Shown in pieces: positions 52,835-52,960 of a stretch of 64,000 nt of DNA. Location: assembly GCF_044647545.1 (NCBI RefSeq), contig NZ_CP172818.1; one strand, given 5' to 3'. The DNA is from Escherichia coli (GTDB lineage Bacteria; Pseudomonadota; Gammaproteobacteria; Enterobacterales; Enterobacteriaceae). The notes below the pieces were generated by a model. That model had not been told where the DNA came from. It saw only the letters and a program-made list of their open reading frames with translations, and ran no database searches. Position 1 is the stretch's first letter; each line of letters starts with the position of its first letter. Both the position numbers and the translations under genes were made by a program.

Positions 52835-52960
52835 ATGAATCTTTTAATGCGCGCTATATTCAGTCTGCTGTTGCTTTTTACTCTCTCTATTCCTGTCATT
52901 TCTGACTGTGTTGCAATGGCCATTGAAAGTCGCTTCAAATATATGATGCTGCTTTTTTAA
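52835..52960 (+). CDS. Small hydrophobic protein (41 aa), possibly yqfG-like
   Basis: ATG at 52835 preceded by tGGAGAataat SD; encodes MNLLMRAIFSLLLLFTLSIPVISDCVAMAIESRFKYMMLLF with one predicted TM helix; below the 60 aa ORF-track cut-off. Confidence 0.45.
   Translation: MNLLMRAIFSLLLLFTLSIPVISDCVAMAIESRFKYMMLLF

Follow-up and report, generated by a model that had tools for sequence, protein, structure and literature searches.

The window, a stretch of 64,000 nucleotides of Escherichia coli DNA, carries between the urate/H+ symporter gene uacT and idi a small open reading frame (ORF) on the plus strand (52835..52960). It consists of 41 sense codons, from the ATG at 52835 to the TAA at 52958–52960, and translates to MNLLMRAIFSLLLLFTLSIPVISDCVAMAIESRFKYMMLLF. 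Taking together the RefSeq annotation at the matching position, the dN/dS values and the family alignment given below, we regard it as practically certain that this ORF is the genuine gene yqfG. When positions 52700–53100 were used as a megablast query, matches were obtained in 5384 of the 5426 complete genomes of E. coli that were searched. One of the matching strains, FDAARGOS_497, was 100% identical over the 401-nt query and has RefSeq yqfG (WP_001050745.1) at coordinates equivalent to 52835..52960; the annotated yqfG at 2636..2761 of locus L001 corresponds to this interval. In K-12 MG1655, yqfG is b4684 (3032817..3032942), flanked by uacT (b2888) on one side and by the convergent yqfH (b4753) and idi on the other. 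The peptide encoded in the window agrees with K-12 YqfG at 40 of 41 residues, and the three base differences between the two genes comprise the sole residue change, F3L, and two synonymous substitutions.

The preliminary description of this DNA had recognized a 41-codon ORF here, as borne out by the sequence, and its suggestion that this might be yqfG was confirmed by the annotations in K-12 and the identical strain. It had also spoken of a small gene of unannotated size; the gene is indeed small, but it is not unannotated, since current pipelines call it ('yqfG: protein YqfG' stood under the match in 29/29 sampled full-length E. coli rows). yqfG is thus already known and annotated, and the ORF as a discovery adds nothing new. 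It has carried a b-number ever since a survey of small proteins in 2008, and its product has been used as a model substrate of the intramembrane protease RseP. Rare alleles of yqfG were also seen in E. coli (drawn from proteins P0001, P0005, P0014, P0018, P0024, P0043 and P0064), in which loss of the stop codon extended the product to 57 or 62 residues or in-frame duplications within the hydrophobic segment gave 43 and 45 residues, together with a few frameshifted forms.

The upstream cistron, uacT (51395..52833, plus strand), is a pseudogene in the window. A 10-bp deletion relative to K-12 at about 52483 (CGGCGCTGGT, located between short GCTGG repeats) shifts the reading frame and splits the gene into ORFs 51266..52489 and 52393..52833, and RefSeq marks the gene as 'frameshifted' in the identical strain. 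This deletion allele was found in 46–47 out of 5346 complete genomes of E. coli; judged from that distribution, it is a recent minority allele. yqfG is intact downstream of the frameshifted uacT, which shows that it was not lost at once with uacT.

Translation start and transcript end

A Shine-Dalgarno-like GGAGA (52825..52829, plus strand) is found within the last uacT codons, separated from the yqfG ATG by a 5-nt spacer, in agreement with the well-placed ribosome-binding site noted earlier. The uacT stop codon TAA (52831–52833) is followed by the single spacer base 52834, and this arrangement (52831..52834, plus strand) has the geometry of termination–reinitiation; the earlier placement of the start '2 nt after' the uacT stop holds when read as stop+2, with one base in between. 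Exactly the same 1-nt spacing was seen in 14 of 14 uacT–idi loci from Escherichia, Citrobacter and Klebsiella, these being 12 loci from the idi-anchored scan described below, K-12, and L083 as one of the loci of family protein P0083. Purine-rich equivalents of GGAGA occupy the same place in other genera (GGTGA, GGATGA and GGGAGGAG), a conservation that is confounded by the coding of uacT. In more distant family members the permease stop and the ORF start overlap by 1 nt or by 8 nt, or are 3 nt apart (gaps over the whole family being 1–3 nt), the exceptions in spacing being Kluyvera and Raoultella, in which a spacer of 66–80 nt bears its own Shine-Dalgarno sequence. In the Kluyvera-type locus L087 (3950..4132) the spacer that sets the YqfG homologue apart from the permease gene has a hairpin as well, and the similarly separated homologue of the Raoultella locus L088 (3947..4145) has no gene call in its source assembly.

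Two further in-frame ATG codons, at 52817 and 52823, lie upstream inside uacT. They both precede the GGAGA and have no counterpart in the Klebsiella indica and P0083 loci, because of which 52835 is, on comparative grounds, the best-supported start of yqfG. Some gene callers report the 47- and 45-codon versions that begin at these upstream codons (for example P0014, MENNMNF...).

On the 3' side, a stem-loop of 35 nt (52973..53007, plus strand) begins 13 nt past the yqfG stop. Its computed folding energy is −24.1 kcal/mol with z = −5.0, none of 200 shuffled sequences being as stable, and its pairing is supported by compensatory changes in eight of nine pairs among 12 sequences from Escherichia, Citrobacter and Klebsiella. 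A homologous hairpin with a T-run was found in Pseudocitrobacter and Kluyvera, the T-run being degenerate in Escherichia. A scan for consensus promoters and terminators gave nothing specific around yqfG, and it missed this hairpin because Escherichia has no T-run there. Judged from folding and covariation, the hairpin is probably the 3' end of the uacT–yqfG transcript, either as a degenerate terminator or as a 3'-end stabiliser. A constitutive idi promoter was located between yqfG and idi in a study of sigma-70 holoenzyme binding (PMC3946193).

The same segment is covered by yqfH (b4753; 52957..53028, minus strand), a convergent ORF of 23 codons that is annotated in RefSeq and K-12 (PMC6001520) and is a neighbour of yqfG rather than a part of it, overlapping the yqfG stop by 4 nt and spanning the hairpin. 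The YqfH peptide is poorly conserved even among Escherichia (61–89%), and no match to it was found in the Citrobacter and Klebsiella loci of the idi-anchored scan. From these comparisons the constrained feature at yqfH seems to be the hairpin rather than the peptide. A structured RNA in place of a gene was rejected as a candidate, as an Rfam scan of positions 51000–54000 at E ≤ 1 returned three sub-threshold matches, the best reaching 20–21 bits against gathering scores of 42–100.

Selection on the encoded peptide

A YqfG-like ORF of 40 or 41 codons was present in all 14 uacT–idi loci that were read. Using the Nei–Gojobori method, dN/dS was found to be 0.06–0.13 within Escherichia and 0.17–0.32 between genera, with the variable sites distributed as 22/11/35 per codon position over 40 codons. 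The C-terminal half of the peptide had dN = 0 within Escherichia at a dS of 0.26–0.50, and the identity of the E. coli peptide to those of Citrobacter or Klebsiella was 54–56%. Because an ORF of this length recurs with the same 1-nt spacing in 14/14 loci and shows dN/dS values of 0.06–0.32, its conservation is, as estimated from these alignments, far beyond chance. The pattern of substitution is, by the same reckoning, that of a translated and selected gene, and purifying selection on the peptide is clear. This was the check that the preliminary description had proposed, namely conservation of the ORF and its synonymous-site pattern across Enterobacteriaceae, and both the dN/dS range and the skew among codon positions speak for a gene.

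These data also bear on a reading in which only the translation of the ORF matters, affecting in cis the stability of uacT mRNA, the hairpin further downstream or the expression of idi, with the peptide itself having no function. Such a role would agree with the tight coupling of stop and start and with a conserved hairpin located 13 nt past the stop codon, but it leaves unexplained the strong amino-acid constraint amid abundant synonymous change, as well as residues and spacing that stay invariant where the DNA can barely be aligned. We hence consider it highly improbable, and it is the peptide itself that would be the functional product.

Distribution of the family

A single-sequence search returned homologues from Escherichia and Shigella only, and the candidate explanation of an Escherichia-only orphan was rejected as a word-index artefact, being overturned by the idi-anchored scan and by profile searches. 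With 24 representatives recovered at E ≤ 0.001 in the profile search, the YqfG family is, in terms of detectable sequence similarity, wider than Escherichia, enterobacterial and so far without a name. Its members are peptides of 38–44 residues, labelled 'hypothetical', from about ten enterobacterial genera. Profile searches and cluster names place them in Citrobacter (C. farmeri, C. enshiensis and sp. Marseille-Q6884) and Klebsiella (K. aerogenes, K. michiganensis, K. oxytoca and K. pasteurii), and the family was also found in Enterobacter, Salmonella enterica subsp. diarizonae and Apirhabdus / Erwinia sp. HR93, with further copies, either uncalled or called separately, in Kluyvera, Raoultella and Pseudocitrobacter.

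The 23 distinct sequences of the family could be aligned free of gaps from Arg6 to Phe34. Pro20, Arg33 and Phe34 are invariant in all of them, position 29 is Gly or Ala in 23/23, position 25 holds a small residue in 22/23, position 32 is Ser or Gly and position 36 is aromatic, with a motif [E/N/S]-[S/G]-R-F-x-aromatic being common to all sequences. Scans of YqfG and YqfH against Pfam and NCBIfam gave no family match, and a profile search of the PDB with YqfG gave only chance transmembrane matches to photosystem II D1 at E ≥ 0.2. We also considered a lipoprotein, with I-S-D-C as the lipobox, and rejected this candidate since Cys25 occurs in only four Escherichia-type sequences, the other 19 of 23 having Gly, Ala, Ser or Val at this position; the residue at −1 to Cys25 is Asp, which is no lipobox residue.

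Membrane topology and cleavage by RseP

YqfG has a GRAVY of 1.44, with Kyte–Doolittle means over 19 residues of 1.65–2.18 for windows starting at residues 1–13, and AlphaFold2, supplied with an alignment of 19 sequences, modelled it as a single continuous helix over residues 3–40 with a mean pLDDT of 88. TMHMM predicts a transmembrane segment at residues 7–29 with N-in/C-out orientation (PMC10470546, Table S1, where the orientation is listed as predicted only). The single hydrophobic helix that the preliminary description had read from the sequence is thereby supported by hydropathy, by the published TMHMM segment and by the one-helix model. A positive-inside bias is seen in Arg6, kept in 22 of the 23 family members, and in YqfG of the E. 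coli type the acidic residues 24 and 31 together with the C-terminal carboxylate make the C-terminal side net negative. Taken together, these features suggest that YqfG is a single-pass small inner-membrane protein with a predicted N-in/C-out orientation.

Published experiments agree with a membrane location. An HA-MBP-YqfG fusion behaved as integral to the membrane in cell fractionation and alkali extraction, YqfG was cleaved by RseP whether plasmid-borne, chromosomal or purified, and helix-destabilising substitutions within residues 8–15 modulated this cleavage; the protein is described there as a small membrane protein with no assigned function (PMC4597795, PMC10470546). For the expression of YqfG, Hemm et al. 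2008 is cited in PMC4597795. The cleavage by RseP was determined in vivo and in vitro for the K-12 protein; the one residue at which the allele of the window departs from it, residue 3, does not belong to the predicted transmembrane segment 7–29.

An alternative reading treats YqfG as a precursor whose residues 1 to about 23–29 would serve as a Sec signal peptide; a periplasmic peptide of 12–18 residues carrying the ESRF-x-aromatic motif would be set free by signal peptidase I, and RseP would clear the remnant. YqfG was in fact picked as an RseP substrate for its resemblance to signal peptides (PMC4597795), and its short basic n-region with Arg6 in 22/23 members, the hydrophobic core of 13 residues, the invariant Pro20 and the polar positions 23–24 fit that design. 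This also applies to the small residues at 25, 27 and 29, which are A-x-A-like (27 is Ala or Thr in 21/23 and 29 is Gly or Ala in 23/23), and to a C-terminal segment that is the most conserved part of the peptide. However, no −3/−1 site is allowed in every member, as a site after residue 23 fails in the seven of 23 sequences having Gln or Arg at that position and a site after residue 27 fails in two of 23, with Asn or Asp in Kluyvera and Raoultella. The transmembrane segment predicted at 7–29 and the one continuous helix of the AlphaFold2 model likewise speak against processing, and purified RseP cuts full-length, PURE-synthesised YqfG without the help of signal peptidase (PMC10470546). A precursor is therefore unlikely in our view, compared with an intact single-pass membrane protein.

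Another reading of a small hydrophobic peptide at this locus would be a type I toxin-like product under antisense control from the convergent yqfH side. The overlapping yqfH and the stable hairpin at the 3' end of the gene would be in line with this, as would the RseP substrate class that YqfG shares with HokB and HokE (PMC10470546). The yqfH side is nonetheless absent outside Escherichia, where YqfG is conserved; yqfG, being coupled to a transporter gene, is no independent locus provided with a leader of its own; and no Rfam match reached its gathering score over positions 51000–54000. Moreover, toxicity was reported for the Hok proteins and none for YqfG constructs (PMC10470546). We find a toxin of this kind scarcely credible, and continue with YqfG as a membrane protein encoded next to a transporter gene.

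Association with UacT-type permease genes

In the idi-anchored scan, which covered 80 loci with one genome per species, a YqfG-like ORF of 40–41 codons was present in 11 of 11 loci having a UacT orthologue upstream of idi (Escherichia species, 'Citrobacter sp. MGH106', the C. amalonaticus group, Citrobacter sp. R56 and Klebsiella indica); none of the remaining 69 loci had one. Four further loci, those of P0083, share one gene layout and again showed the order uacT–ORF–idi. Every family member with a neighbourhood that was read, from about ten genera, was found directly 3' of a Xan_ur_permease (UacT-type) gene, and among the neighbourhoods read no member was found in a non-permease context. This included the P0232 neighbourhood of K. 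aerogenes, which had been predicted beforehand to be linked to a permease. The partner permeases are 41 to 100% identical to UacT, which is also their best match within the window.

The adjacency holds away from idi as well, in loci of Kluyvera, Raoultella, the Enterobacter type and the Klebsiella michiganensis type and in the P0223 loci. A divergent ygfT-like gene adjoins the permease gene in most loci, and the downstream neighbours vary, being idi, a glycoside-hydrolase-like gene in the Kluyvera-type L087, a gene for a 715-residue or molybdopterin enzyme in the Raoultella, Klebsiella and Enterobacter types, or xdhC in the P0223 loci. Four UacT-like genes had no small ORF, namely those of Erwinia sp. 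CGal63 (82% identical), Morganella (77%), Hafnia (71%) and Edwardsiella (72%), and the small ORF is therefore not universally needed by the transporter. In the contexts read, exceptions to adjacency went in one direction, with permease genes lacking the ORF and never an ORF lacking the permease gene. As judged from gene order, yqfG is inherited together with the permease gene.

We also observed that UacT ends in a basic amphipathic tail, VRTVRMWLL[LM]RK[LV][KQ]K (about 52770..52815 in the window). Comparing UacT of the window with the permeases of L083, L087–L090, L094, L095 and L097, this tail was kept in all permeases partnered by the ORF, even at 41% identity to UacT. It was missing from the permeases of Morganella, Hafnia and Edwardsiella, which lack the ORF, and present in Erwinia sp. 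CGal63, which also lacks it.

Discussion

The arrangement of the locus can be accommodated in one model. yqfG would be the second cistron of a uacT–yqfG operon, with ribosomes that come to the end of uacT reinitiating one base further on, loading at GGAGA, or both, such that translation of the two genes would be coupled. The hairpin past the yqfG stop would close this transcription unit, with idi starting from its own promoter. With uacT interrupted as in the window, ribosomes would stop about 345 nt short of yqfG, so that initiation here would depend on the GGAGA of yqfG itself and the gene may be subject to polarity. The helix of YqfG would span the membrane with Arg6 on the cytoplasmic side, a kink at Pro20 and Arg33/Phe34 at the periplasmic interface, the conserved C-terminal part thus facing the periplasm. 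The small-xxx-small face formed by positions 25 and 29 may pack against a second helix. The most economical candidate for this is a helix of UacT, in which case YqfG would be a small accessory partner that modulates the assembly, stability or activity of UacT, and RseP would remove YqfG that is unpartnered or in excess.

As a whole, this model of a translationally coupled, single-pass YqfG that serves as an accessory partner of UacT and is cleared by RseP is the best explanation we can offer, and we lean towards it with some reservation. For its specific proposition that YqfG acts through UacT, drawn from gene context, we would put the chances somewhat short of even. An accessory-partner role appears the likeliest one because yqfG accompanies genes for UacT-type permeases in one enterobacterial genus after another; against this stands the consideration that inheritance of an operon can by itself preserve the adjacency of its genes. 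We found no published link between YqfG and UacT, or between YqfG and urate uptake, in the literature on YqfG.

YqfG could also be a real membrane protein that is simply carried along on the uacT mRNA and has its site of action elsewhere in the envelope, independently of UacT, be it on another membrane protein or as a signal titrated by RseP. That its function has been left unassigned in the YqfG literature (PMC4597795, PMC10470546), that yqfG is intact where uacT is frameshifted and that some UacT-like genes occur without YqfG are all compatible with such independence. The association extends to permeases sharing as little as 41% identity with UacT and persists in front of at least four different downstream neighbours, which is less easily reconciled with it; so is the finding that none of the family members turned up in a different gene context. 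We consider a UacT-independent role rather unlikely, and UacT as the site of action remains the reading we prefer.

Extending the proposal to the whole family, the members of this undescribed Enterobacteriaceae family might be dedicated partners of UacT-type permeases that dock through Pro20, small25-xxx-small29 and ESRF-x-aromatic and are cleared by RseP if unassembled; we put this forward tentatively, as a possibility with the odds somewhat against it. If it were true, UacT would be a two-component transporter in these bacteria, and studies of urate uptake using uacT alone may miss a component. The linkage to uacT and the definition of the family are a modest yet testable by-product of the present analysis, in the form of the hypothesis that YqfG acts on UacT.

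Among known systems the closest is K-12 YqfG itself (b4684, YP_002791254.1), which has equal length and the same locus layout, with the ATG 1 nt after the uacT stop and with yqfH and idi downstream. The window differs from it by F3L, the two synonymous changes and the frameshifted uacT upstream. Sec signal peptides resemble YqfG in their basic n-region, 13-residue core, Pro20 and polar and small residues, and signal peptides are known substrates of RseP once freed (PMC4597795), whereas YqfG lacks a universal −3/−1 site and is hydrophobic and best conserved in the region after Pro20. The class I small-membrane-protein substrates of RseP (YkgR, HokB, HokE, Blr and YshB) are, like YqfG, predicted to be N-in/C-out single-pass proteins and are cleaved by both chromosomal and purified RseP (PMC10470546). 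That group is united by a shared protease and not by homology.

A different kind of parallel is offered by small proteins that are bound to a membrane partner, such as KdpF with KdpABC, CydX with CydAB, AcrZ with AcrB and MgtS with MgtA. YqfG shows no sequence similarity to these four proteins, and its own partnership with UacT is a putative one. Like YqfG, they all have fewer than 50 residues and a single transmembrane helix, and KdpF and CydX are encoded in the operon of their partner, just as YqfG adjoins a uacT-type gene in every locus that was read.
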